DNA of 24,000 bases from Candidatus Doudnabacteria bacterium (GTDB lineage Bacteria > Patescibacteriota > Dojkabacteria > J137 > JAEUSD01), in contig JAEUSD010000011.1 of assembly GCA_016788825.1 (NCBI GenBank), positions 12,322 through 36,321 on the forward strand, read 5' to 3'. Below are positions 1,658 through 23,316 of the stretch, piece by piece. Position 1 is the stretch's first letter. Each line of letters starts with the position of its first letter. The position numbers were made by a program, and so were the translations under genes. The notes below the pieces were generated by a model that was not told where the DNA came from, made no database searches, and saw nothing but the letters and a program-made list of their open reading frames with translations.

Positions 1658-3472
1658 ATGGATAGATTAGAAGAAGGGCTTGCTAAGGTTCAATCTCTGG
1701 AACTGGCAAGAGCCTGGAAAAAGTATAGAGTAACTCCCCGTCTTATCGTTATGTCAGCAGCGTTAATGACTTTTGTACTTGCCCAGAATATAACAGAACC
1801 GATGAGGCATCCTCGGCAACGCGGAAGAGGTGTTAAAGTGGAAATACCTGAAAAACCCTTACTAAAAGATCTTACTGCACATAGTGATTACACTGCTGAG
1901 CCATTCTCGTTAGACCCTACTGGTCGAGTTATTGTAAATCCGGCCTATCCGGGCCAATTGGCAAGATATTACTCATTGATAACCAGTGTAAACCTTGCTG
2001 CGCTTGACGAGCAAAGTATAGAGGAAGTTCTAAGGTTATTCCTTAGCGTAATAAATGGAGATCAAGAACTTCCTCCTGCGGATGAGTTTTTTACACCTGA
2101 AGCTGAGATGCAGATAACTGTGCCCAACGTGATTAGGTCGATGAGACCCTTTTTGGCAGAATTGCCAAGTGAACAGTTTTTTAAATTGTACCAAGCGATT
2201 AACACATGGTTAGGAGGTAATCCTCCCACTTACGATATCAATCGCGAATCGAATCTGGCTTTAGTAGAGTTTCTGTTCCGAAAACTAGCCTATGGTATGA
2301 ATAATATTGACCCGCAAGCAGATACTTCATACACACTGATTCCTGAGTTGCCTTTGACTGGAGATAAGGTAAACGAATTTAAGGCGGGATTGATTGCTTA
2401 TCGTGACTCGCAGCCTGCTGAAAAAGTAGAAATTTATCGAATCTGGCTGCTGAAAGTCATGCTGGAAAGTGATTTGGGGGCTTACGAGCTTGGACAGATC
2501 TTAAGTACAATGAATTCGGTTTTTGGTTCTATTAATCTTGATGCATATCCCTTCGATTTGAATACGGGAACTATCTCGGTGCCTTCTCCGTTACCCGAAA
2601 GGTTAAACACAGATAAGATCCTAACAGAACTTGCAAACCAGATAGGTTTGAGTACTAGTGCGATAGACCAGGAGATCGGGCTAGGGCTTTTGTTTGGCTC
2701 ACTAGGTCAGATTGATGAATTAGGACTGGCTGAGCCATTTCCAGGTGCTGATGGACAGTTCTTTGCTAAATATCCACTGATGGGGGTACGTGATACAGAT
2801 CCTAGTAGTGAGGTAATTAGGAATTATGTTGGGGTTGTTGTTCATGAGTTTGCTCACACACGCTACAGCGCACTTAGGTTCAAGACCTGGTCTGAGGTAG
2901 CAGGCGTACAAATGACCTATGAACAAGCATTTTGGTATTACATTTTCAGGGTGTATGCTGGGTATGAGGAAGTAGATGCTGGTTTCTACGAACTTGTGAA
3001 GACTACAATTGATTCTAGGGGCAAGACTGACAAGTATGGTAGCTATATGGGGGTAATAGGGAGGTATTTCCATGATGTAGGGTTAGATATCGAATCTGTT
3101 CCCATAGAAGATCCAAAATTATTTGCAGATTTCTGGACTACCAGCGGGCTTTCGGCTGGTGTTGTGACAACACAAATTGAAGGAGCGGATATTGGTCCTT
3201 TTGATGAAGGTCATTCGCGCATAATGCAGGGAAGTTACCTCTTTATCCGTGAGCTGCCAGCGGATTTCGCAAAGTTTGCTGCACAGGTCTATGATTCTGA
3301 GAACAGGCTAATGCTTAGTGACTTAGACGAGTTTATAATTGGATTTGCGGATTTTATAACTATGCTCATGATTATGATGAGTGTGGTTAGTCCTGAAATA
3401 CTTGATCTTACCTTAGCTTTGGGAAAAAAGCGATCTACACGGCGAGTTCCGACAGAAGTTTATAAAAGCTAA
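1658..3472 (+). CDS. Hypothetical membrane-anchored protein with an HExxH (HEFAH) zinc-metalloprotease-like motif
   Basis: This is a 604-aa uninterrupted ORF. It has a hydrophobic N-terminal segment (LIVMSAALMTFVLAQNI), the motif VVVHEFAHTRY around residue 395, and a hydrophobic C-terminal segment (FIIGFADFITMLMIMMSVV). I recognise no other family signature. Confidence 0.6.
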   Translation: MDRLEEGLAKVQSLELARAWKKYRVTPRLIVMSAALMTFVLAQNITEPMRHPRQRGRGVKVEIPEKPLLKDLTAHSDYTAEPFSLDPTGRVIVNPAYPGQLARYYSLITSVNLAALDEQSIEEVLRLFLSVINGDQELPPADEFFTPEAEMQITVPNVIRSMRPFLAELPSEQFFKLYQAINTWLGGNPPTYDINRESNLALVEFLFRKLAYGMNNIDPQADTSYTLIPELPLTGDKVNEFKAGLIAYRDSQPAEKVEIYRIWLLKVMLESDLGAYELGQILSTMNSVFGSINLDAYPFDLNTGTISVPSPLPERLNTDKILTELANQIGLSTSAIDQEIGLGLLFGSLGQIDELGLAEPFPGADGQFFAKYPLMGVRDTDPSSEVIRNYVGVVVHEFAHTRYSALRFKTWSEVAGVQMTYEQAFWYYIFRVYAGYEEVDAGFYELVKTTIDSRGKTDKYGSYMGVIGRYFHDVGLDIESVPIEDPKLFADFWTTSGLSAGVVTTQIEGADIGPFDEGHSRIMQGSYLFIRELPADFAKFAAQVYDSENRLMLSDLDEFIIGFADFITMLMIMMSVVSPEILDLTLALGKKRSTRRVPTEVYKS

Positions 3473-4708: not shown

Positions 4709-5560
4709 TTATCTCAAAAGCCCATAAATATTATCCAGCTCCTCATCGCTTGTGAACGGGATTACGATCTTGCCGCCTTTTTGAGAGCGACTGAGGGTGA
4801 CGGATTTGCCGAACTTGGCGCGGAGGGAGTTTTCGATCTCACTAGTTTTTTCGTCTAGGATGCGAAGGTCGCGCCTTACTTGGCGTTTGTGGCCTTTGTT
4901 GAGACGTCGGACTAGCTCTTCGACAGCGCGAACAGATAGGTTATCTCTGAGGATGATTTTATACGTGGCGATCATTGTTTCGGTCGAGTCTAGCCCAAGT
5001 AAGGCGCGGGCATGACCTTCGGTAATCTTTTCTTCCAGTAACCCGCGCTTGATCTCCTCTGGCAACGTCAAAAGGCGGATTTTATTTGCTACCGCCGGGC
5101 GGCTGAGGCCTAGTTTCTTGGCAATAGTGTCGTGAGTTTGTTGAAATATATTCGCTAATTGATCAAACGCAAGGGCTTCTTCAAGTGGATTCAAGTCGGC
5201 GCGCTGGACATTTTCAACAATTGCCAGTTCAAGCATCTCCTGAGCAGAGGCTTCCTTGACTACAACTGGCACAGTTTCAAGTCCGGCAAGTTTGGAGGCA
5301 CGCCAGCGGCGCTCTCCGGCGATCAATTCGTACTTGTTATCTCCCTTTTTGGTAACGATCAATGGTTCAATCACGCCGTGCTCACGGATAGAGTCAGCCA
5401 ATTCAACTAGCTGTTCAGGCTTCATCTCTACACGTGGTTGATAAGGGTTGGCCACAATGTGGTCTATTGGAAGAGTAGGGATGTATCCGGATTGGACACC
5501 GGCTACGGTTTCCTCGCTTATTAATGCTGATAGTCCTTTGCCTAATCCTTTCTTAGTCAT
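4709..5560 (-). CDS. parB: Chromosome partitioning protein ParB (Spo0J family)
   Basis: It has the ParB box LIAGERRWRASKLAG, an HTH region (TIAKKLGLSRPAVANKIRLL) and the typical N-terminus KGLGKGLSALI. Confidence 0.92.
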   Translation of the reverse strand: MTKKGLGKGLSALISEETVAGVQSGYIPTLPIDHIVANPYQPRVEMKPEQLVELADSIREHGVIEPLIVTKKGDNKYELIAGERRWRASKLAGLETVPVVVKEASAQEMLELAIVENVQRADLNPLEEALAFDQLANIFQQTHDTIAKKLGLSRPAVANKIRLLTLPEEIKRGLLEEKITEGHARALLGLDSTETMIATYKIILRDNLSVRAVEELVRRLNKGHKRQVRRDLRILDEKTSEIENSLRAKFGKSVTLSRSQKGGKIVIPFTSDEELDNIYGLLR

Positions 5561-5630: not shown

Positions 5631-6425
5631 TTAATCCGAGTTATGTAAATACAGCCCGGGATTCTTAATGAGGTCAATAACTAGACTGTATAGGTCGGAG
5701 AGAACGGGAAAAGGAAGATCTTTTAGTACGGGTAACAGAGTTACTAGGATTAACTGATATCTTTCTAGGTTGCCTGTGGGATTCATTTTGATTTGTTCAA
5801 TTACTTTATCTACAACTGTGTAGAAAGCATTGAACCTCCTTGGAATTTGTCTGTAGAAGTTAGTAATACTATCTTTGTTTGTGTTTAAGTATACCGATAG
5901 TTTCATCAAACTTGTGTGGAATTCCGTTTGATCCATTATTAAAAGATCGTAGGTTTTTCTAAGCAGCAAACTATCTAAGTTGGGTACTTCCCTCAGGTAA
6001 TCAGGGTTGCCGTTCCTTAGCTTTTCTATTTTTTTGTCTACCTCTAGGATCAAAGGGTCCTGATACTCCTCTCTGTCGATTACCTCTAAAGCATCATTGT
6101 ATATTCTAAGGCCGAAGATTATGGACATATCTGTGACAAGGCTCACTAGATTATTAGTCCTGGTCTGTCCTTCGGCATCCAAGTAAGTTACCCTAATTTT
6201 TTTGGGTAACAGCAGTGGTGCGAGGTCAAGTACATTGGAGGCGTATCCGGCGTCATACATTCTCAGGAAAAGCCCAAAGAATCTTAAAGCCTTCTCATCT
6301 TCTAGGGCATTCAGTACTCCCTCTACCTCTGATTGCAAGCTCTCGCTTAATTCTTGTTGAAGGTCTAACTGGCTCAGGAATTCGCCCAGGTTTGGTTTAT
6401 TGAAACCTTCAGGTCCGGAACTCAT
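5631..6425 (-). CDS. Hypothetical protein (264 aa) encoded between parA and parB
   Basis: This is a clean ORF on the same strand as the flanking par genes, with 31-nt and 70-nt gaps. I see no recognisable motif. It looks predicted-helical and acidic and lacks a TM segment. It is visibly more AT-rich than parA and parB. Confidence 0.6.
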   Translation of the reverse strand: MSSGPEGFNKPNLGEFLSQLDLQQELSESLQSEVEGVLNALEDEKALRFFGLFLRMYDAGYASNVLDLAPLLLPKKIRVTYLDAEGQTRTNNLVSLVTDMSIIFGLRIYNDALEVIDREEYQDPLILEVDKKIEKLRNGNPDYLREVPNLDSLLLRKTYDLLIMDQTEFHTSLMKLSVYLNTNKDSITNFYRQIPRRFNAFYTVVDKVIEQIKMNPTGNLERYQLILVTLLPVLKDLPFPVLSDLYSLVIDLIKNPGLYLHNSD

Positions 6426-6456: not shown

Positions 6457-7254
6457 TCAAGCTGTAATGAATCTCTTAATGACTTCGGTTGCGAGGGCGG
6501 AGTAGGCCTTGGCGCCGGCGGATTGGGCGTCATAATCATGGATGGAGAGTCCATGCGACGGCGCCTCGGATAACCGGATGTTCCTTGGGATCACCGCTTC
6601 AAACACTGTATCTTTGAAAAATGCGCGCACTTCGTTTGCCACGTCGCGGCTGAGGTTTGTACGGTTATCGAACATGGTGAGGATCACGCCACCGATTTCA
6701 AGCTCTGGGTTCAGTTTAGATTTGACGAGTTTAATCGTGTTCATCAATTGGCCGAGTCCTTCTAGTGCAAAATATTCGCATTGAATTGGGATCAGCATCT
6801 TGTCCGCGGCTGTAAGCGCGTTGATAGTCAAAATTCCCAATGAAGGAGGGCAGTCGATGATGATAAGCTCGTAATCCTTTTTCACTTTCGCTAAAGCAGA
6901 CTTGAGAATGTTCTCGCGAGACATCATATTTACCATTTCCACCTCAGCCCCAGACAATTCGATTCCTGCGGGTAGTACTTCCAAGTTCTCTGTCTGCGAT
7001 TTAACGATGATTTCGGCGGGCTCAGCAGAGTTTACAAGGAGGTCATAGATGGTCTTTTGGGTACTGTCCTTGCCAGTGATATCCGTTGGACCATCTTTGT
7101 GCACATTGATGCTGAGCCCGGAAGTGAGATTTGCTTGAGGATCGAGGTCAACCAAGAGTACTTTATGCCCGGCGTTGGCTAGGTAAACGCCCAAATTTAT
7201 CACAGTGGTCGTCTTGCCAACGCCACCTTTTTGGTTCATCACACTGAGTATCAT
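6457..7254 (-). CDS. parA: ParA/Soj family partition ATPase
   Basis: It has the deviant Walker A NQKGGVGKTTT, plus LLVDLDPQANLT and IIIDCPPSLG. Confidence 0.92.
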   Translation of the reverse strand: MILSVMNQKGGVGKTTTVINLGVYLANAGHKVLLVDLDPQANLTSGLSINVHKDGPTDITGKDSTQKTIYDLLVNSAEPAEIIVKSQTENLEVLPAGIELSGAEVEMVNMMSRENILKSALAKVKKDYELIIIDCPPSLGILTINALTAADKMLIPIQCEYFALEGLGQLMNTIKLVKSKLNPELEIGGVILTMFDNRTNLSRDVANEVRAFFKDTVFEAVIPRNIRLSEAPSHGLSIHDYDAQSAGAKAYSALATEVIKRFITA

Positions 7255-7910
7255 TTTTGTACACTAACAGGGCAGAGTGTTTTGGGGGCAGTGTTGTTTG
7301 AGCTTATTAAACCGAAAGTGCTGAGCGGCCAATACGTCAAAATTACTTTGCCTTGTAGCCATTCACGTTTAATTTGTCCAATCTCGTTGAACCTAGAATC
7401 TAAACTGTTGTTACGGTTATCCCCCATCAAAAAGTAGAACCCTGGATCAATAGTTACTTCTTCACCTTCTGCCAAGTAACTTCCACCATTTGTACGTCTC
7501 TCTGGAGGGAGATAGCTTTCCAGCAACCGTTCTCCATTTACGTAAACCCTCCCATCACGAATGCTTACCTTGTCTCCTCCAATGGCGATAACTCTTTTTA
7601 CAAGAGCTTTTTCTCTGTCTGGTTTCTGGAATACCACGATATCTCCTCGCTGGTAATCTAACCCCATGCTTTGGCCGAACGGGGTAGAACCTAGCCATAC
7701 GGATAATTTATTCGTGAGCAAAAGCTGAGCGTCTTCGAAGTTGGGGCACATCGAGTAGCCATCAACTTGATTTGGTGTGAGGATAAACAGATACAGAACT
7801 ATGCAGATGAATAGTGCCACTACAATTGATTGCAGCATATCTACAACTATCCCCCCGCTTCTTTTCGGCTTTGCCGGTTGTTCAAAAAAAGGATTATCAA
7901 TATTGTCCAT
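7251..7910 (-). CDS. lepB: Signal peptidase I
   Basis: It has an N-terminal TM segment, the catalytic Ser box GYSMCPNF, the Lys box KRVIAIGGDKV, and GDNRNNSLDSR. Its stop overlaps the parA start in an ATGA arrangement (7251-7254). Confidence 0.9.
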   Translation of the reverse strand: MDNIDNPFFEQPAKPKRSGGIVVDMLQSIVVALFICIVLYLFILTPNQVDGYSMCPNFEDAQLLLTNKLSVWLGSTPFGQSMGLDYQRGDIVVFQKPDREKALVKRVIAIGGDKVSIRDGRVYVNGERLLESYLPPERRTNGGSYLAEGEEVTIDPGFYFLMGDNRNNSLDSRFNEIGQIKREWLQGKVILTYWPLSTFGLISSNNTAPKTLCPVSVQK

Positions 7911-15621: not shown

Positions 15622-16074
15622 TTACGATGGAGGTTCGCCGCCCTCCCTGCTCCAGATAAGAGTAAACCCTTTCATATCTTTCTTCCTTCTTCTGAAAGCG
15701 GTTACAAGATGTAACTCATTTTCTTTCTTGTTTTCTTCTATTGCAAGTAGGTAAAGCTGATCCTTATAGGTGTGCGTAAAAACTAAATCTGCTGTGCGTC
15801 CAGGTTTATTCAAGTATACAGCATCGGGATTGCTTATCATGGCTCGTAAGCGTTTTATGAGGACCAAGTAATCTGAAAGTGGGCGTTTGTCATAAATGTG
15901 CTTGAGTGTTTTTGTACTCAGGATAAGGACAGTATCTCTAAAGTAGAGCTTTCGATTTATATAAAGATTCAAAGCTAAAATTGCGAATGACTTCACTGTA
16001 ATGAAAACTTGGGGTGCAGTTTCAGCAACATACCTATTGTGGATTGTAATCGGTCGAGAAAATCTTTGCCTCAT
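15622..16074 (-). CDS. Hypothetical protein, possible Barnase-EndoU-ColicinE5/D-RelE-like (PBECR-type) toxin-like nuclease
   Basis: The pattern LILSTKTLKHIYDKRP...LIKRLRAMISNPDAVYLNKPGRTADLVF...QLYLLAIEENKKENELHLVTAFRRRKK resembles small phage/toxin-associated RNase-fold modules as I remember them. The start is uncertain: the alternative ATG at 16143 adds 23 aa, and the track start at 16260 is implausible because it overlaps fmt. The local sequence is very AT-rich. Confidence 0.4.
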   Translation of the reverse strand: MRQRFSRPITIHNRYVAETAPQVFITVKSFAILALNLYINRKLYFRDTVLILSTKTLKHIYDKRPLSDYLVLIKRLRAMISNPDAVYLNKPGRTADLVFTHTYKDQLYLLAIEENKKENELHLVTAFRRRKKDMKGFTLIWSREGGEPPS

Positions 16075-16130
16075 CCAGATATAGTACTGGGCAGTTATTA
16101 ATTTTTTATTAACTTCACAAACATGTAAGG

Positions 16131-16136
16131 TATAAT
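16131..16136 (+). promoter_or_regulatory. -10 box TATAAT 5 nt upstream of the fmt ATG
   Basis: The plus strand reads gtaaggTATAATttcgcATG, with no SD. Confidence 0.4.
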
Positions 16137-16141
16137 TTCGC

Positions 16142-17092
16142 ATGCAAGGTAAAATAAAAACGCTTTTTATCGGGACAGGGGAGTTTGCCGTGCCGGTGTT
16201 GAAGAGTTTGGTGGGCTTGGAGCTGGTGGATTTGGTCGGAGTGGTGACGCAACCCGACAAGCCCGCAGGTCGTAAACAGGAGTTGACACCAGGGCCTTTG
16301 AAAAAGGCCCTACAAGAAATTCCAGACTTGGGAAACGTACAACTTTTCCAACCCGAGAAGCTACGCGAGGCCGCCGACGATATTATGTCTCAAACTTCGC
16401 CAGAGTTAATTGTCGTGGCGGCCTACGGTCAGATGATCCCAAACAGCATGCTAAATACCCCGAAACATAAATGTTTGAATTTGCACGGTTCATTACTCCC
16501 ACAACTCCGTGGTGCCGTTCCTGTGCAAATGGCTATTTTACAAGGGCTATCCGAAACCGGGGTGACGATCCAACAAATGGTGAAGGAGCTAGATGCTGGA
16601 CCGATTCTGACGACAGTAGATTGCGAGATCTCGCCAAGTGAAACCGCAGAATCGCTTATGAAGAAGCTGGCTGACTTGGGTGCTGCATTGCTCGTGGAAA
16701 CTTTACCTCGCTGGGTAGCTGGTGAGATTCAGCCCCAAGAGCAAGACCACTCCCAAGCGACCTTCTGTTACCAGGCTGACATCGCCAAAGAGAAGGCTGA
16801 AATTCGCTTTGAGACCCCGCTAGAACAGGTGGAAAGAATGGTGAGAGCTTTCTACCCCTGGCCAGTGGCCTGGGCGAAATTAGATGCGCAGGAGGGGAAA
16901 GCCTTAAAAATCTTCAAAGCCCGAATCGAGCAAGAGTTAAAGTTTAAATCAAACGAACTAGAGATACGAAGAGATGGTAAGAGATTGTTTCTAACATTGC
17001 AGAATGGCGTCTTAGAATTATTAGAAGTTCAGTTGGAGGGGAAACAAAGGCTGGGAGCTTTGGACTATCTCTGGCTAGTTAATGCTAAATGA
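16142..17092 (+). CDS. fmt: Methionyl-tRNA formyltransferase
   Basis: It contains FIGTGEFAVPVL, VVTQPDKPAGRK, LNLHGSLLPQLRGAVPVQMAIL and the C-terminal Fmt domain. Confidence 0.9.
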   Translation: MQGKIKTLFIGTGEFAVPVLKSLVGLELVDLVGVVTQPDKPAGRKQELTPGPLKKALQEIPDLGNVQLFQPEKLREAADDIMSQTSPELIVVAAYGQMIPNSMLNTPKHKCLNLHGSLLPQLRGAVPVQMAILQGLSETGVTIQQMVKELDAGPILTTVDCEISPSETAESLMKKLADLGAALLVETLPRWVAGEIQPQEQDHSQATFCYQADIAKEKAEIRFETPLEQVERMVRAFYPWPVAWAKLDAQEGKALKIFKARIEQELKFKSNELEIRRDGKRLFLTLQNGVLELLEVQLEGKQRLGALDYLWLVNAK

Positions 17093-17626
17093 ATTGACTA
17101 CTTGCATGTAAGCTTGTAGATGTTGTGAAAATAATGCGGGTACGGCAAAATATTGGATGGAGTAGACCTCTCCATCCTTAACTATTATAGTGACTTTTTG
17201 TTGAAGAGTTCTTCCGGCAGGTTCTGTGTAAGAATATGTAAACGAAGGATAGTCCTGTTTCCCCGAGGTAATTTGCTCTAGGTCAATTAACTTAAAATCT
17301 GCAAGGTTTTCACTGTGATAGTCTATTTCGCTATTAGCATAGGCTTCCGCAGAGTTATCTATGGTGGGGAGATCGGATTTATAAACTGCAATTACTCCGG
17401 CGGATTCTATAGCTGTTCCTGTGATTAGGGTAACACTTGCCTCACCCTGTAAAGCAGCTTGTAAATTCCAATTTAGAGGGTATTCGAATGTGTAGTACTC
17501 ATTGCCAAATGTTCTTGGTCGATTTAGTAAAAATATCATGCCAACAACCAACAACCCGACAACTAGGGCTATCCCGATAAGCATGGAGTTCTTCTTGTTT
17601 GGCAGTTTTATATTTATATACCCCAT
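17075..17626 (-). CDS. Hypothetical N-terminally membrane-anchored protein (possible PsbP/DUF1795-like fold)
   Basis: It has a TM segment (MLIGIALVVGLLVVGMIFLL). This is followed by YYTFEYPLNWNLQ...VYSIQYFAVPALFSQHLQAYMQVVNSFSI, which is reminiscent of PsbP-like domains. The fold guess is low confidence. Confidence 0.55.
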   Translation of the reverse strand: MGYINIKLPNKKNSMLIGIALVVGLLVVGMIFLLNRPRTFGNEYYTFEYPLNWNLQAALQGEASVTLITGTAIESAGVIAVYKSDLPTIDNSAEAYANSEIDYHSENLADFKLIDLEQITSGKQDYPSFTYSYTEPAGRTLQQKVTIIVKDGEVYSIQYFAVPALFSQHLQAYMQVVNSFSIN

Positions 17627-17645
17627 AATTACCTTTATAATAATA

Positions 17646-19385
17646 TTAACCTCTAGGAATTACTGTCGCGTCTTTGGGCAGGCAGAGCGATTGTTCCGAG
17701 CTACACACTCCCTCTTCCACGCAGTTGGATTCGACATCTGTTGCTTTTCTACACTCTAAACCCCAGTCACATTGATTATTGTTCTGATCACAAACGCTTC
17801 CGTAAGGCAAAAATTTTACACATATGTCACCCACACATTTGTTATCTGGCTCCTCACAGTATCTGTCACTACCGGAGCATTTCCCGCCTGTTTTAATAGG
17901 AATAAATGGCAGGTAGTCTGCCTCTGAAGCATCATCGGTGATTGGCACAGCTATAAGTCCATTTTGGGCAACAACACATTTACCAATACGATTAACCCAG
18001 TCATTCTCTGCGCCGATAGTTTGTATGGCGACTATTTGCCCTCTAAGAGTACAACCCAAGGTAAAGTTTCCGGTTTGAGGCTCCTCTGTACCTGCAGTCT
18101 GGCATGTATTATTTAGACACACTAACCCACTCCCGCAAGCGGCGGAATTAGGACAATATATTCCTTCACGGGCTTTACAGGTAGATACTGGGTAAGATAT
18201 CCCGTTTGCAAGCGTTTTTGTCTCTGTGACGCAGCTACCACTTATGCAGGAGTTTATTTCTTCGTCTGGTATGCAGTTTCCGCCTGGCATGATATAGGAA
18301 ACTGCAGAGGTGCAAGTAGGGTTTTTTATAGTTTGAGGGAAAAGTGTGACCTCATATTGCCCCGTGTCTGGGTTAAGGTACCTGATTGGGTTTTCGCGAC
18401 AGATTTCAGAGGGCACTACACCACAGCTTCCGGTTGATGTATACCCAATAACATCACCTGCTTCTTTGTTCGCACACTTCCCATCTGGGTCTAGATCATT
18501 AGTAGTAGCCTGGTTGGCCGTACCTCTTATTGGTATTGGAAACCTATAATCGTTAGTTACTGTTTCCATGCCGATGCTTTGACTTTTTTTGACACAAAGC
18601 CTATCGCTTTTACACTCATATGTACTATCACTACACCGTTTCCCACTACCTCCGCACTCCACACCTGTCGGAGCTTTCACTTGTTTTGATAAACGGCCTG
18701 TATAAATATTCTGTTGAACAGTCGGATTTTCAGCAGGGGGATTAACAGGGTTAGGATCACTTGAGATCTCATCACACCTACCACCAACACAAGTTAGGCC
18801 AGACCGACAACTGGAGTCTCCCACGCATTTTGAACCAACATTTCCTTGCCCAGTACCCACACACTTACAAGCAGTATTGCATACACAGTTAGAATCAGTA
18901 GAGTCTCCCGGTCTCAAGCCATTGCAAATATCTCCGGGAACACTACACGCAGGATTCTCAGCTGGTGGTGGAGGTGTAGGGGTAGGTTTAGGAGGCTCTG
19001 GGTTACTCTTGAAAGGCACGCAAGCACAGGCGTTAGGATTCGTACTTGTTGCAGACCTCACACAACGGCAGATATCTCCGGGGGTTTGGTTAATCTGGCT
19101 ACAATTGCGTGCATTGCCTGGCCCGGAGCATGTATTTCCATCACCTGGAGGAGGGTTTGTAGGATTGTCACAGGTTTGGGCATATGGTCCTGTAGTAGGA
19201 ATACAGCCCTTATCTGGGCACCATATCTCGTAATGTGGTGGTTCTACGCGACAACCATGTTCATCCACTACTGAAATATCTACAAAGCTACTTAGAAACC
19301 CATTAGAGACTGCGAGAAGCAGTGCACTCACTGCTAGGGTGATAACAAGAAGGATTAAAGCAACGTTACGTTTAAAGTTAGCCAT
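17646..19385 (-). CDS. Membrane-anchored or secreted cysteine-rich modular protein (579 aa)
   Basis: It has an N-terminal hydrophobic anchor (VALILLVITLAVSALLLAVS) and about 48 Cys by hand count. Repeated modules include GSKCVGDSSCRSGLTCVGGRCDE, GKRCSDSTYECKSDRLCVKK, GIYCPNSAACGSGLVCLNNTCQT, GGKCSGSDRYCEEPDNKCVGDICVK and GSVCDQNNNQCDWGLECRKA. Pro-rich linkers include PEPPKPTPTPPPPAENP and NPPAENP. Confidence 0.75.
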   Translation of the reverse strand: MANFKRNVALILLVITLAVSALLLAVSNGFLSSFVDISVVDEHGCRVEPPHYEIWCPDKGCIPTTGPYAQTCDNPTNPPPGDGNTCSGPGNARNCSQINQTPGDICRCVRSATSTNPNACACVPFKSNPEPPKPTPTPPPPAENPACSVPGDICNGLRPGDSTDSNCVCNTACKCVGTGQGNVGSKCVGDSSCRSGLTCVGGRCDEISSDPNPVNPPAENPTVQQNIYTGRLSKQVKAPTGVECGGSGKRCSDSTYECKSDRLCVKKSQSIGMETVTNDYRFPIPIRGTANQATTNDLDPDGKCANKEAGDVIGYTSTGSCGVVPSEICRENPIRYLNPDTGQYEVTLFPQTIKNPTCTSAVSYIMPGGNCIPDEEINSCISGSCVTETKTLANGISYPVSTCKAREGIYCPNSAACGSGLVCLNNTCQTAGTEEPQTGNFTLGCTLRGQIVAIQTIGAENDWVNRIGKCVVAQNGLIAVPITDDASEADYLPFIPIKTGGKCSGSDRYCEEPDNKCVGDICVKFLPYGSVCDQNNNQCDWGLECRKATDVESNCVEEGVCSSEQSLCLPKDATVIPRG

Positions 19386-19400
19386 ATTCGGACTGAAGCT

Positions 19401-19429
19401 ACTCTAAACATTTTTAAATGTCGTGTCAA
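19401..19429 (-). promoter_or_regulatory. Sigma-70-type promoter for the cysteine-rich gene
   Basis: The minus strand has TTGACA (19429-19424), an exact 17-nt spacer, then TAGAGT (19406-19401). The ATG lies 15 nt downstream, with no SD. Confidence 0.5.
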
Positions 19430-19438
19430 CAGGGGTTT

Positions 19439-20875
19439 TTACGAAACCCCTAATTTCGTGCGGATGGCTTGCTCAGCAAGCTTTGGATTGGCCTGCCCTT
19501 TGGTAGCCTTCATCACCTGGCCGACAAGAGCATTGATCGCATTAGGATTTTTTGCCAGGGAATCGACAAGTTTCTGATTATTTACAATTACCTCATCCAC
19601 AATCTTTTCTAGTGCTCCGGAATCAGAGATCTGTTCCAAACCCTGAGATTTCACGATCTCCTCAGCCCTCCCACCACTTTCAAACATCTCCTCCAAAACC
19701 TTTTTCACAATCGTCCCAGATATCTTGTTCTCAGCCACACTTTCAACCAAGAAAATCAGATCTGTTGGGGAAACGGGCAGTTCGGCGACGGAGACACCCT
19801 TCTTTTCCATCAAACCTGACACGTCGCCGATAAACCATTTCACAGCCTGCTTCAACTTTTCAGCTGCTAAGTCTTTGCTTAGCAAATCAATCCAATCACC
19901 CTTGTCACGTTGTTCAACCAAGATCTCTGCCTGTTCAAGCTCCAAACCCCAGTCGTGGACGTAACGGTCGCGGCGAGCGGCAGGCAACTCTGGCAATTCA
20001 GACCTAATCTCCGCGAGCCACTCGTCAGAAATATAAATCGGAGGGATATCTGGCTCTGGGAAATATCTGTAATCGTCCTCTGTCTCTTTGAGACGCTGAG
20101 ACACTGTAGCCCCAGACATATCTCGAATCCCTCTAGTCTCAGCCACCACCTTCTCCCCCTTAGCCAAAATCTCTGATTGGCGCTTAACTTCAAACTGCAA
20201 GACTTTTTCCAGCACAGAGATAGAGCCAATATTCTTTACCTCCACTTTGTAGTTAGGCAGCTTACCGTCTGGCTCATTTGTACGTACAGAAATATTTAAT
20301 TCAAAGCGCATCTGACCTTTTTGCATTTCAGCATCACTGATCCCGACGTACTGCACAGTCTGCTTCAATAGTTTGGCAAATGCAGTAACTTCCTTTAACT
20401 CCTGAAAGTCTGGCTCCGTCACGATCTCAATCAAAGGGACACCAGCTTTGTTATAGTCCAAAAGCGTGCCATCGTCTGTGTGGATGCTTTTACCTGTATC
20501 TTCCTCAATATGCACGCGACGAATGCGGATGCGTCGTGCATCCCCCTCTACATCGATTTCTAAGTACCCATCGTGACCGACGGGGTAATCGTACTGCGAG
20601 ATCTGGTAGCCCTTTGGTAAATCCGGGTAAAAGTAGTTTTTGCGGTCGAATTTAGTTTTCTGATTTATCTGACAATTCAAAGCCAAAGAAATGGCAATAC
20701 ATTTACGGATAGCCTCCTCGTTTGGCACAGGCATCGCTCCCGGAAGTCCGAGAGACACAGGGTCTACATGCGAGTTTGGTTCGTCTGCAAAGTATTCTGC
20801 AGAAACCGGACTAAACATCTTGGATTTTGTTTTGGCCTGAACGTGAATTTCAAGACCGATTACTGGTTGCGCCAT
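19439..20875 (-). CDS. gatB: Asp/Glu-tRNA amidotransferase subunit B
   Basis: It contains IGLEIHVQ, NYFYPDLPKGYQISQ, IHIEEDTGK and the C-terminal GatB/YqeY domain. Confidence 0.95.
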   Translation of the reverse strand: MAQPVIGLEIHVQAKTKSKMFSPVSAEYFADEPNSHVDPVSLGLPGAMPVPNEEAIRKCIAISLALNCQINQKTKFDRKNYFYPDLPKGYQISQYDYPVGHDGYLEIDVEGDARRIRIRRVHIEEDTGKSIHTDDGTLLDYNKAGVPLIEIVTEPDFQELKEVTAFAKLLKQTVQYVGISDAEMQKGQMRFELNISVRTNEPDGKLPNYKVEVKNIGSISVLEKVLQFEVKRQSEILAKGEKVVAETRGIRDMSGATVSQRLKETEDDYRYFPEPDIPPIYISDEWLAEIRSELPELPAARRDRYVHDWGLELEQAEILVEQRDKGDWIDLLSKDLAAEKLKQAVKWFIGDVSGLMEKKGVSVAELPVSPTDLIFLVESVAENKISGTIVKKVLEEMFESGGRAEEIVKSQGLEQISDSGALEKIVDEVIVNNQKLVDSLAKNPNAINALVGQVMKATKGQANPKLAEQAIRTKLGVS

Positions 20876-20958: not shown

Positions 20959-21468
20959 TTACGCCTTTTTTACCTTTTCCACCTTTCCTTTAGCGTTGCT
21001 GATAGGTGCAATATAGTCAGCAAAACGCCTCAGCAAGGAAGAGTATCTCTGATTTGGAGTAATAACTTTACCCAACTTCTCTTGGTCTTCTAAATATTCA
21101 ATCAAGCAGTGAAAATCCCCATCTCCCGACACAATGATAGCCTTATCATATTTGGGGTAGTGGATCATTGTGTGCAAAACAAGCTCAGCATCAACATTTC
21201 CCTTTACCTCTACTGTCTTTCCTTTCTTGATTTCAAGTATAGGTTTGAAAACTAAGATATACCCAACCCTCTGTAGGTAAGAGTATAGAACACTATTACC
21301 AGGAATAAAACCAATAAATAGGTACGCTTGCTCCACTCCGTACTTACCTCGCAGGTATTTACGAAATCTACCAAAATCTAACTCCCAACCGGCTTGCTTC
21401 ACGCCTTTGTAAAGATTTTGGCTATCAATAAAAGCGTAGGTATTTTTTTGCTTAGTAGAATCTTTCAT
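20959..21468 (-). CDS. NYN domain (LabA/PIN-like) putative ribonuclease
   Basis: The product contains TYAFIDSQNLYKG...GNVDAELVLHTM...KAIIVSGDGDFHCLIEYL, the NYN-domain acidic-residue pattern. The ATG at 21468 lies 1 nt after the gatA stop (TAG, 21472-21470). The track start at 21492 overlaps gatA. Confidence 0.8.
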   Translation of the reverse strand: MKDSTKQKNTYAFIDSQNLYKGVKQAGWELDFGRFRKYLRGKYGVEQAYLFIGFIPGNSVLYSYLQRVGYILVFKPILEIKKGKTVEVKGNVDAELVLHTMIHYPKYDKAIIVSGDGDFHCLIEYLEDQEKLGKVITPNQRYSSLLRRFADYIAPISNAKGKVEKVKKA

Positions 21469-21469
21469 C

Positions 21470-22876
21470 CTAATTTGTACAATTTTGAGCAATCATAAAT
21501 AACTTCTCTTCTTCAAACCTATTTGTCATGATCTGGAAGCCGATAGGCAAACCTTCACTGTTGGTGCCGCACTTCACGCTGATCGCTGGGCAACCAGTGA
21601 GGTTTGCCGTCACCGTATAAATGTCCATCAAATACATGGCCAACGGGTCATCAGATTTCTCGCCAATCTTTGGCGCTACACAAGGAGCCGTTGGCCCGAC
21701 AACTGCATCTACATCTTTGAATGCGTCAGTCACTTGCTGAGTCAACTTCGCTCTCACTTTGGCTGCTGTTTTGTAGAACGCATCAGCATAACCCGCAGAT
21801 AGCGCGTAAGTTCCGATCATAATTCTGCGCTTCACTTCTGGCTCAAAAAACTGGCCGCGGCCTTTCATCATATTCTCGTGGTAATCTTCAGAAACTTTTG
21901 GACCGAATCTCACACCGTCATAGCGGGCCATGTTTGAAGAGATTTCAGCCGGAACGAGTACATAGTACACGGCAAGACCGATTGGTAACAAAGGAATAGA
22001 GATATCCACAATTTCAGCACCTTGCTCTTTCAAGTTCTCAATCGCTGTTTGAACTTTTTCTCTCACTTCATCATCCAAGCCTTCAGCAAAATATTCTTTG
22101 GGCACACCAATCCGCATACCTTTGACGCTAGATTTCTGCGCGGCGGCTGTATAGTCTGGCACAGGGTGATCATAAGTTGTGGCATCGAGGGGATCTTTGC
22201 CGGCTAGGATAGTCTCAACGTAGGCGACATCGTTAACTGAGTCAGCAAAGATCCCCACAGTGTCAAAAGACGAAGCCATCGCAATCAGTCCATACCGAGA
22301 ATTTCGACCATAGGTCGGTTTGAAACCTACTGTACCTACAAAACTAGCTGGTTCGCGTACTGAGCCTCCGGTGTCCGTTCCCAAGGAGAATAGACCGATC
22401 CCGGCGGCCGCGGCCGCGGCCGCCCCTGAGCTGGACCCGCCAGGCACTCTACTCTTATCCACCGGATTCAACGCGGGTCCATAACCTGAGTTTTCTCCGC
22501 TTCCTCCAAACGCAAATGGATCACAGTTTGTTTTGCCAATGATGATTGCGCCTTCTGCTTCGATCTTCTTCACAACCGTAGCCGAGTAAGGCGCGATAAA
22601 ATCTTTGAGATACTGTGAGCCAGCAGTCGTTCTAACCCCTTCGGTCATGATCACATCTTTCACCGTACAAGGGACCCCTGCTAGCGTGCCCACCTCTTCA
22701 CCTGCCGCAATTTTGCGATCTATCTCACGTGCCTTCTCGATTGCTTCTTCAATCACAGTTGTAAAAGCATTGAGCTCTTTACCCAAAGTCTTGGCTTTTT
22801 CAATGTGTTCGCGAACTAGCTGTTCAGAAGACAGTTCTTTAGATTTAATTTTGTTTACAACTTCTGAGATTAACAT
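21470..22876 (-). CDS. gatA: Glutamyl-tRNA(Gln) amidotransferase subunit A
   Basis: It has the amidase signature GGSSSGAAAAAAAGIGLFSLGTDTGGSVREPASF and a typical GatA N-terminus. Confidence 0.95.
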   Translation of the reverse strand: MLISEVVNKIKSKELSSEQLVREHIEKAKTLGKELNAFTTVIEEAIEKAREIDRKIAAGEEVGTLAGVPCTVKDVIMTEGVRTTAGSQYLKDFIAPYSATVVKKIEAEGAIIIGKTNCDPFAFGGSGENSGYGPALNPVDKSRVPGGSSSGAAAAAAAGIGLFSLGTDTGGSVREPASFVGTVGFKPTYGRNSRYGLIAMASSFDTVGIFADSVNDVAYVETILAGKDPLDATTYDHPVPDYTAAAQKSSVKGMRIGVPKEYFAEGLDDEVREKVQTAIENLKEQGAEIVDISIPLLPIGLAVYYVLVPAEISSNMARYDGVRFGPKVSEDYHENMMKGRGQFFEPEVKRRIMIGTYALSAGYADAFYKTAAKVRAKLTQQVTDAFKDVDAVVGPTAPCVAPKIGEKSDDPLAMYLMDIYTVTANLTGCPAISVKCGTNSEGLPIGFQIMTNRFEEEKLFMIAQNCTN

Positions 22877-23225: not shown

Positions 23226-23316
23226 GCGCAGGAAGGAGATCTTGAGCAACTTTAGAGCTCAGACTTACTTTTACCTAGAATCGAATCGCATACTACACGT
23301 ATATATCCCAGAGATA

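Follow-up and report, generated by a model that had tools for sequence, protein, structure and literature searches.

The 24,000-nucleotide stretch of DNA analysed here (referred to below as the window; contig JAEUSD010000011.1, 36,322 bp long, of GenBank assembly GCA_016788825.1, positions 12,322 to 36,321 of the forward strand) contains on its minus strand, at 17646-19385, a gene for a cysteine-rich protein of 579 amino acids. The protein is interpreted as an exported, disulfide-stabilised and strain-variable envelope protein of a bacterium of the Candidate Phyla Radiation (CPR), diversified by recombination at the conserved 5' end of its gene, a reading to which somewhat more than even credence is given. 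A life attached to other cells is assumed for CPR bacteria, but hardly any of the molecules used for contact and for setting the host range have been identified. An envelope protein that is rich in disulfides, restricted to one lineage and completely different between strains with 99.4-99.8% identical housekeeping proteins is a reasonable candidate for either task. The analysis adds a corrected gene model, a tiny protein family, a polymorphism in which the 5' end of the gene is conserved and its body varies, and a co-varying partner gene for a PsbP-like protein.

The open reading frame (ORF) starts with ATG and is real, as had been proposed. The original prediction had counted by hand an even number of about 48 cysteines (about 8% of residues); the exact number is 48, or 8.3%. 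The 21 other long ORFs of the window together contain 43 cysteines in 6356 residues (0.68%), which makes the gene an extreme cysteine outlier in its own genome.

The GenBank annotation of the locus is different. It begins the gene at M273 and retains only residues 273-579 (MBL8015185.1, JNK26_03275, 307 aa; window 17646-18569, minus strand), the sequence recovered as P0002 in the protein search, and it places an ORF of 118 aa on the plus strand (MBL8015186.1, JNK26_03280; 18877-19233) over the N-terminal half of the gene. This antisense ORF is probably spurious, a glycine-rich shadow of the proline-rich codons on the other strand. Residues 1-269 are homologous to a protein of 523 aa, P0001 (E = 4.6e-32, phmmer), and also to the two other relatives P0003 and P0004; the BLASTP alignment with P0001 covers residues 1-328 and crosses M273, and the cysteine positions are conserved across the family. 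Judged by this homology, the 579-aa model is the correct one and the gene is truncated in GenBank. As a result of the truncation and the antisense call the protein is missing from the public protein databases, and its full sequence is absent among approximately 15 billion proteins; atypical proline- and cysteine-rich genes of this kind may be systematically under-counted. The opposite case is that the GenBank model is right and the long frame is either a chimeric assembly join at the repeated 5' segment or a non-functional, decaying remnant. This agrees with the GenBank call and with the absence of the full protein from the collection, and disagrees with the homology to P0001 on both sides of M273 and with the shadow nature of the only alternative annotation; together with the evidence from the locus given below, it is regarded as very unlikely.

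The N-terminal hydrophobic anchor described in the original prediction was recovered as a hydrophobic segment at residues 1-40, which contain all strongly hydrophobic 19-residue windows of the protein (Kyte-Doolittle peak of 3.06 at residue 8), and residues 2-33 form a helix in AlphaFold2 models. Codons 1-31 (MANFKRNVALILLVITLAVSALLLAVSNGFL; 19293-19385, minus strand) form a conserved 5' segment, which encodes a putative signal-anchor or signal peptide and up to the end of which the DNA is essentially identical in the three strains compared below. K5 and R6 precede the hydrophobic segment and D36, D41 and E42 come after it, a charge distribution which suggests an N-in/C-out orientation. The segment would thus direct Sec export and either be kept as an N-in/C-out anchor or be cut at AVS↓N. 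A type IV pilin or pseudopilin was considered and rejected, as the class III signal G/A↓F-x-x-x-E ahead of the hydrophobic helix was not found in MANFKRNVALILLV; the sole listing in the NCBIfam search was a match of 25 residues of the hydrophobic segment to the pilin UpsA (E = 0.19, 11.8 bits, cut-off 130). A sortase substrate was likewise rejected, as the C-terminus carries no LPXTG motif with a hydrophobic tail.

The family-conserved part of the predicted ectodomain comprises residues 35-208 (18762-19283, minus strand) and was delimited from family alignments; it contains the VDxSV motif, 20 cysteines and a proline-rich linker (residues 124-146) with PAENP at its end. The repeated PAENP reported earlier is indeed present twice, at residues 141 and 217. 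Invariant positions in the family alignments include D36, S38, V39, C108, C120, C154, C167, C169, C173, C175, C187 and C193. Residues 145-208 (18762-18953, minus strand) constitute a 10-cysteine core, which includes the first of the repeated modules and is the sole part modelled with fair confidence, with a predicted local distance difference test (pLDDT) score of about 80. The C-terminal half (residues 273-579; 17649-18569, minus strand), with 24 cysteines, is strain-specific in the sequence searches, which returned no homologue for it except its own GenBank fragment.

At least five copies of a module G-x-x-C-x(4-7)-C-x(3-6)-C-x(3-4)-C had been claimed, and this number was too high, as the pattern matches only three times. 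A relaxed pattern, C-x5-6-C-x5-6-C-x4-5-C, yields four clean copies (residues 187-204, 244-264, 411-428 and 503-522), and two further candidates, a fifth and a sixth, are no better than shuffled sequence. In 5000 composition-preserving shuffles of the ectodomain the observed count of the module patterns (3-4 versus 0.06-0.18 expected) was never reached. A small hidden Markov model (HMM) built from the modules recognises copies that had been held out, in P0001 (258-275) and in P0003 (203-217), and gives no support for the fifth and sixth candidates in the 579-aa protein. The modules, all on the minus strand, are located at residues 183-206 (VGSKCVGDSSCRSGLTCVGGRCDE; 18768-18839), 240-266 (18588-18668, preceded by the second PAENP at 18723-18737), 407-430 (18096-18167) and 499-524 (17814-17891), the last two within the strain-specific half. 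DNA-level tandem repeats beneath the modules were not found. Approximately 545 residues would lie outside the membrane, arranged as 4-cysteine beta-hairpin modules and the 10-cysteine core, and the proline-rich spacers between these would keep small rigid modules away from the membrane.

The ectodomains of the four family members contain 48, 38, 30 and 16 cysteines, all even numbers; the 579-aa protein has neither CXXC nor CC motifs, and its CxC motifs are about as frequent as expected by chance (4 observed versus 3.8 expected). These properties favour structural disulfides over metal or redox sites. Together with the predicted N-in/C-out orientation they make an extracytoplasmic, disulfide-bonded ectodomain the best reading, in line with the oxidative folding outside the cytoplasm that had been proposed from the DNA. 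A thiol- or metal-binding protein, the cysteines of which are reduced in an anoxic habitat and bind metals or are redox-active, would account for the high cysteine content and the four CxC pairs, and many CPR bacteria do inhabit anoxic groundwater. Against it stand the chance-level CxC frequency, the lack of CXXC and CC, the even cysteine numbers in all four members and the regular, hairpin-like cysteine spacing, as well as the enrichment of disulfide-forming families in CPR; it is considered very improbable indeed. CPR bacteria are enriched in MdbA-like oxidoreductase and VKOR families (PMC6744442), and on the preferred reading, that of a disulfide-stabilised envelope protein, an MdbA/VKOR-type system such as is common in these bacteria would join the 48 cysteines into approximately 24 disulfides. 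The window carries several envelope-processing genes: a small Ser/Thr-rich predicted lipoprotein (lipobox LLVGC) is encoded near lgt (11870-12277 and 13604-14479, both plus strand), and signal peptidase I at 7251-7910.

The AlphaFold2 model from the single sequence had a pLDDT of 41 and was unusable, whereas the model from the four-sequence alignment reached 58 overall, with values below 50 outside residues 145-208. Short beta-hairpins were placed on the modules. A Foldseek search of the model against PDB and BFVD yielded no match at E ≤ 0.001; weak matches to a Pithovirus 'transmembrane protein' (E 0.06-0.1, root-mean-square deviation 7-11 Å) were judged uninformative. The likeness of the protein to knottin, Dickkopf N-terminal and colipase-type mini-domains consists in small, glycine-rich hairpin modules with spaced cysteines. 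The top PDB matches were the Dkk4 N-terminal region, EETI-II and other squash inhibitors (template modelling scores of 0.67-0.72 over 24-26 residues), all of them non-significant (E ≥ 1.1, probability ≤ 0.44; knottins at E 1.8-7). An inhibitor cystine knot needs six cysteines (paired I-IV, II-V and III-VI), whereas the repeated unit has four. These model-based matches agree with the 'knot-like' impression noted earlier and are no evidence of membership in those families.

The original prediction could name no family for the protein, and this was borne out by the Pfam, NCBIfam and PDB profile searches. No family-level match at E ≤ 10 came from Pfam or NCBIfam, collections that contain TIGR02232-type, EGF and Dickkopf models; since neither TIGR02232 nor DUF4215 is matched at that threshold, the suggested Myxococcus-like repeat was not confirmed. 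For P0001, P0003 and P0004 no cysteine-rich Pfam domain was found at E ≤ 1. PHROGs and PADLOC yielded nothing at E ≤ 0.1 for the cysteine-rich protein, the PDB sequence profile search gave no match, and nothing was found in phage genomes (tblastn), in IMG/VR viral contigs or in two scans of JGI metagenomes (one with the DNA pattern of the conserved 5' end, one with protein patterns). When 1.84 billion representative proteins were searched exhaustively with phmmer, only four matches were returned, namely the GenBank fragment of the protein itself, P0001, P0003 (423 aa) and P0004 (208 aa, E = 1.5e-4), and a word-indexed profile search with the family alignment returned only P0004. None of 22 Dojkabacteria-type gatB loci (L004-L025) carries a cysteine-rich ORF. 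By these searches the family, with about four members among some 15 billion proteins, is restricted to a very narrow lineage, apart from P0004, which is short and more distantly related. All four members have the N-terminal hydrophobic segment, an invariant N28, a D-x-S-V motif, the first cysteine-rich stretch, the proline-rich linker (with PPAENP in two members) and the core pattern C..G...C.C...C.C.G...C..D.SC.....C; beyond approximately residue 270 they are not alignable with each other.

The variability of the locus was determined by comparing the window with two Logan assemblies, L001 (SRR23814898) and L002 (SRR17651514), all three of which have the gatC-gatA-NYN-gatB block. GatB is 99.4-99.8% identical in amino acids across the three (synonymous divergence, dS, of 0.05-0.13), and the flanking DNA of L001 and L002 is 92-98% identical to the window. 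The DNA similarity spans the gatB stop, a hairpin, the promoter and the start of the cysteine-rich gene and ends abruptly at codon 31 (window breakpoint at about 19292/19293); in L002 the junction is at codon 40. Beyond the conserved 5' segment the gene body and the co-oriented PsbP-like partner gene are replaced, tandemly duplicated or reduced to a stub. In L001 the breakpoint is followed by P0001, a PsbP-like gene and a second family gene of the P0003 type, within which the contig ends. In L002 a 43-codon stub (9873-10004; MANFKRNV...DTSVAHGL*), identical to the N-terminus of P0001 and of the window protein, overlaps the start of a complete P0003 gene directly downstream, which is followed by a partner of 184 aa; the stub looks like the remnant of a deletion or recombination event.

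The window protein and P0001 share approximately 42% amino-acid identity and dS is saturated at 1.86, which shows them to be old swapped alleles or paralogues and not the product of recent point-mutational divergence. The P0003-type alleles of L001 and L002 are 93.5% identical in amino acids, with a ratio of non-synonymous to synonymous divergence (dN/dS) of 0.10; the family is therefore functional and under purifying selection within an allele type. Both the position of the similarity break, exactly at the sequence common to the strains, and the loss of synteny for the rest of the window would also be expected of the assembly join or decaying gene considered above. That explanation is opposed by the continuity of frame and family register (VDxSV, conserved cysteines) across the junction, by purifying selection where it is measurable and by intact family ORFs at this site in three independent assemblies. 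A target of a diversity-generating retroelement was rejected, as the window contains no reverse transcriptase and the divergence affects the whole gene body.

The locus thus has, in three genomes, the appearance of a strain-level recombination hot spot beside gatCAB, where the promoter and the first 31-40 codons are kept and the ectodomain and partner exchanged, duplicated or deleted. Such exchange of bodies and partners could proceed by homologous recombination within the invariant promoter/anchor segment. The strain-specific distal half would form an exposed recognition or protective surface, serving host-cell attachment or phage avoidance. Pressure on the variable ectodomain would favour diversity between strains, and selection within an allele type would be purifying. 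The proposed role in attachment or phage escape is based on analogy and on how the locus varies. The locus, conserved at its 5' end and variable in its body, offers a tractable test case for surface diversification in small genomes.

Downstream of the cysteine-rich gene, at 17075-17626 on the minus strand, lies the partner gene, with a Shine-Dalgarno-like AAGG motif upstream; it encodes a protein of 183 aa with an N-terminal transmembrane segment and a PsbP/DcrB-like domain. It had been described as a second membrane-anchored orphan; the ORF and its hydrophobic N-terminal segment stand, whereas a marginal match to Pfam PsbP (PF01789; 24.1 bits, cut-off 23.5; residues 43-182 against profile positions 11-155 of 155) means that it is no pure orphan. 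The partner in L001 matches Pfam PsbP with 25.4 bits, and that in L002 has no Pfam match. DcrB is matched weakly by the window partner (21.9 bits), and the NCBIfam model PSII_PsbP scores 19.5 bits (cut-off 60); a role in photosystem II is not expected in a CPR bacterium. From PsbP and DcrB, which share the Mog1-PsbP-like fold, the partner differs by its N-terminal transmembrane anchor. A database search with the partner recovered no protein but itself, and its sequence has no match in PDB.

All three partners consist of an N-terminal transmembrane segment and a domain of approximately 140 residues, with a mutual identity of only 20-22%. The gap between the stop of the cysteine-rich gene and the start of the partner is 19 nt in the window, 7 nt in L001 and 2 nt in L002. 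The common fold, the tight operon coupling and the co-variation suggest that the two proteins physically associate; the membrane-anchored PsbP-like protein, predicted to face outward and made from the same operon, probably binds the cysteine-rich protein. The distant member P0004 has no PsbP-like neighbour. A neighbouring gene at a further locus, L003, was tried as a partner candidate and discarded (hhalign probability 0.4%).

A polymorphic toxin/immunity pair would also fit the conserved N-terminus, the C-terminal halves that lack homology, the co-varying small gene downstream, the second pair arranged in tandem in L001 and the L002 stub. On that view the cysteine-rich protein would be a secreted antibacterial or host-directed effector, the PsbP-like protein its cognate immunity protein or chaperone, and the extra pairs and stubs orphan cassettes. 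Eag chaperones, which bind the transmembrane domains of effectors, belong to the DcrB/DUF1795 fold that the partner matches weakly (PMC7773334). The locus resembles polymorphic toxin loci (CDI, Rhs) in its conserved 5' part, in the swapping of the 3' part together with the partner and in the extra cassettes and the stub. It differs from them in that searches of Pfam, NCBIfam, PADLOC and PHROG revealed no toxin domain and that the variable C-terminal half itself consists of cysteine-rich structural sequence, in which the modules recur. The conserved part, limited to approximately 31-40 codons, is only the signal segment and contains no trafficking domain. The partners, moreover, all have one constant fold and are predicted to face outward, whereas immunity proteins of swapped cassettes are usually mutually unrelated and sited where the toxin acts. 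A toxin/immunity pair is accordingly rated as improbable.

Returning to the envelope-protein reading, a further step would be that the gatB-proximal site is a dedicated 'expression site' of a variable surface system in a CPR episymbiont, into which cassettes of an ectodomain and its matched partner are swapped from paralogues or from other strains via the invariant promoter/anchor, setting host-cell specificity or phage susceptibility. This extension is rather doubtful at present; if true, the site would give bacteria an equivalent of variant-surface-protein systems, made from a family seen nowhere else.

Several observations weigh against the interpretation as a recombination-diversified, disulfide-bonded envelope protein. 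Structure prediction is poor for approximately 85% of the protein, with either type of AlphaFold2 input. No gene for an MdbA-, DsbA- or VKOR-type oxidoreductase is present in the 24-kb window. The term 'hot spot' rests on the three genomes of the lineage in the collections searched. The synteny break of the window continues for at least 17 kb downstream of the gene pair, where fmt is convergent in the window and ftsE/X and an M23 peptidase gene are found in L002, which indicates a larger rearrangement or an assembly join at the repeated 5' segment rather than a clean cassette swap. Finally, allele swapping is not unique to the cysteine-rich gene, since the NYN gene between gatA and gatB (window 20959-21492, minus strand; L001 7925-8437; L002 7791-8300) is also mosaic: window and L002 are 99.4% identical, the L001 allele is only 61% identical, and the flanks have at least 97% protein identity. 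Allele replacement is thus a general feature of the region. A second variable spot in the same block lies between the beta-CASP/RMMBL gene and gatC, where L001 (5600-6133) and L002 (5489-6007) each carry an ORF of approximately 175 aa, mutually unrelated (24% over 72 aa, E = 0.04), and the window (at about 23285-23298) lacks this segment of approximately 0.5 kb.

Upstream of the cysteine-rich gene a promoter-like site, TTGACA-17 nt-TAGAGT (19401-19429, minus strand), agrees with the consensus at 10 of 12 positions and is identical in L001 and L002. Of the strong promoter of its own attributed to the gene, the TTGACA and the 17-nt spacer are present; 'strong' describes a consensus match only, because such sites are no commoner in the region than in shuffled sequence (7 versus 5.0 ± 2.1). 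With the -10 hexamer ending 15 nt upstream of the ATG, a very short leader would result; the gene has no visible Shine-Dalgarno sequence. A perfect 7-bp hairpin, GGGGTTT-CGTA-AAACCCC (19432-19450, minus strand), extends across the gatB stop codon, ends 2 nt short of the -35 hexamer and is kept in L001 and, with one mismatch, in L002. It was not called by the terminator scan and is no canonical terminator, since it lacks a run of T.

The neighbours of the gene pair in the window are housekeeping genes, namely gatC/A/B, the NYN-domain gene, fmt, lgt, ileS, parA/parB and the gene for signal peptidase I. Among 185,579 species representatives the best GatB matches were metagenome-assembled genomes (MAGs) of Patescibacteria labelled Dojkabacteria or Saccharibacteria, with only 54-67% identity, by which the host is a CPR/Patescibacteria bacterium without a close species representative; the submitter's label, Candidatus Doudnabacteria, disagrees with the Dojkabacteria-labelled MAGs that are its nearest GatB relatives. 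Neither the Rfam nor the tRNA scan found anything in the window. The 5' end of fmt is overlapped by 119 nt by an ORF with a sub-threshold PBECR3/PBECR2 domain (barnase/EndoU/RelE-like nuclease; 15622-16260, minus strand), and an ORF with a Phd/YefM antitoxin domain (11356-11802, minus strand) lies 4 kb away; the two may be toxin-antitoxin remnants. An ORF of 264 aa without cysteine (5631-6425, minus strand) is located between parA (6457-7254) and parB (4709-5560), where an additional gene is unusual, and has no match in Pfam, PHROG or PADLOC. An ORF of 604 aa (1658-3472, plus strand), also with zero cysteines, has no match in Pfam, PHROGs or PADLOC; its HEFAH motif could be a metalloprotease HExxH site.

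By the tests available, the cysteine-rich protein stands outside the Myxococcus repeat, EGF, Dickkopf and pilin families, and it has no significant structural match among the knottins. The variant surface proteins (VSPs) of Giardia are a functional analogy only. In them a variable, cysteine-rich ectodomain is joined to an invariant membrane anchor, and their disulfide density is thought to give a protease-resistant coat. They are eukaryotic, rich in CXXC and anchored C-terminally with a CRGKA tail, whereas the protein described here has no CXXC and a putative anchor at its N-terminus; VSP variation arises from expression switching among many genes of one genome, whereas the gene described here varies, as far as is seen here, only between strains.

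The closest known kind is found in another CPR bacterium, Candidatus Peribacter riflensis, for which cysteine-rich (7.2 ± 2.4%), signal-bearing and strain-variable extracellular proteins with a proposed role in attachment have been described (PMC4736985). The architecture had been called unusual for a small bacterial genome; given a CPR host and this precedent it is unsurprising. The proteins of Ca. Peribacter riflensis have no detectable homology to the 579-aa protein, are three times larger (mean 1655 aa) and are encoded in a 14-gene cluster, whereas here a single gene with a PsbP-like partner lies beside gatCAB and shows no similarity to the Myxococcus repeat. The two kinds have in common the CPR host, a cysteine content of approximately 7-8%, a signal sequence or membrane association, the lack of functional annotation and variation between strains.

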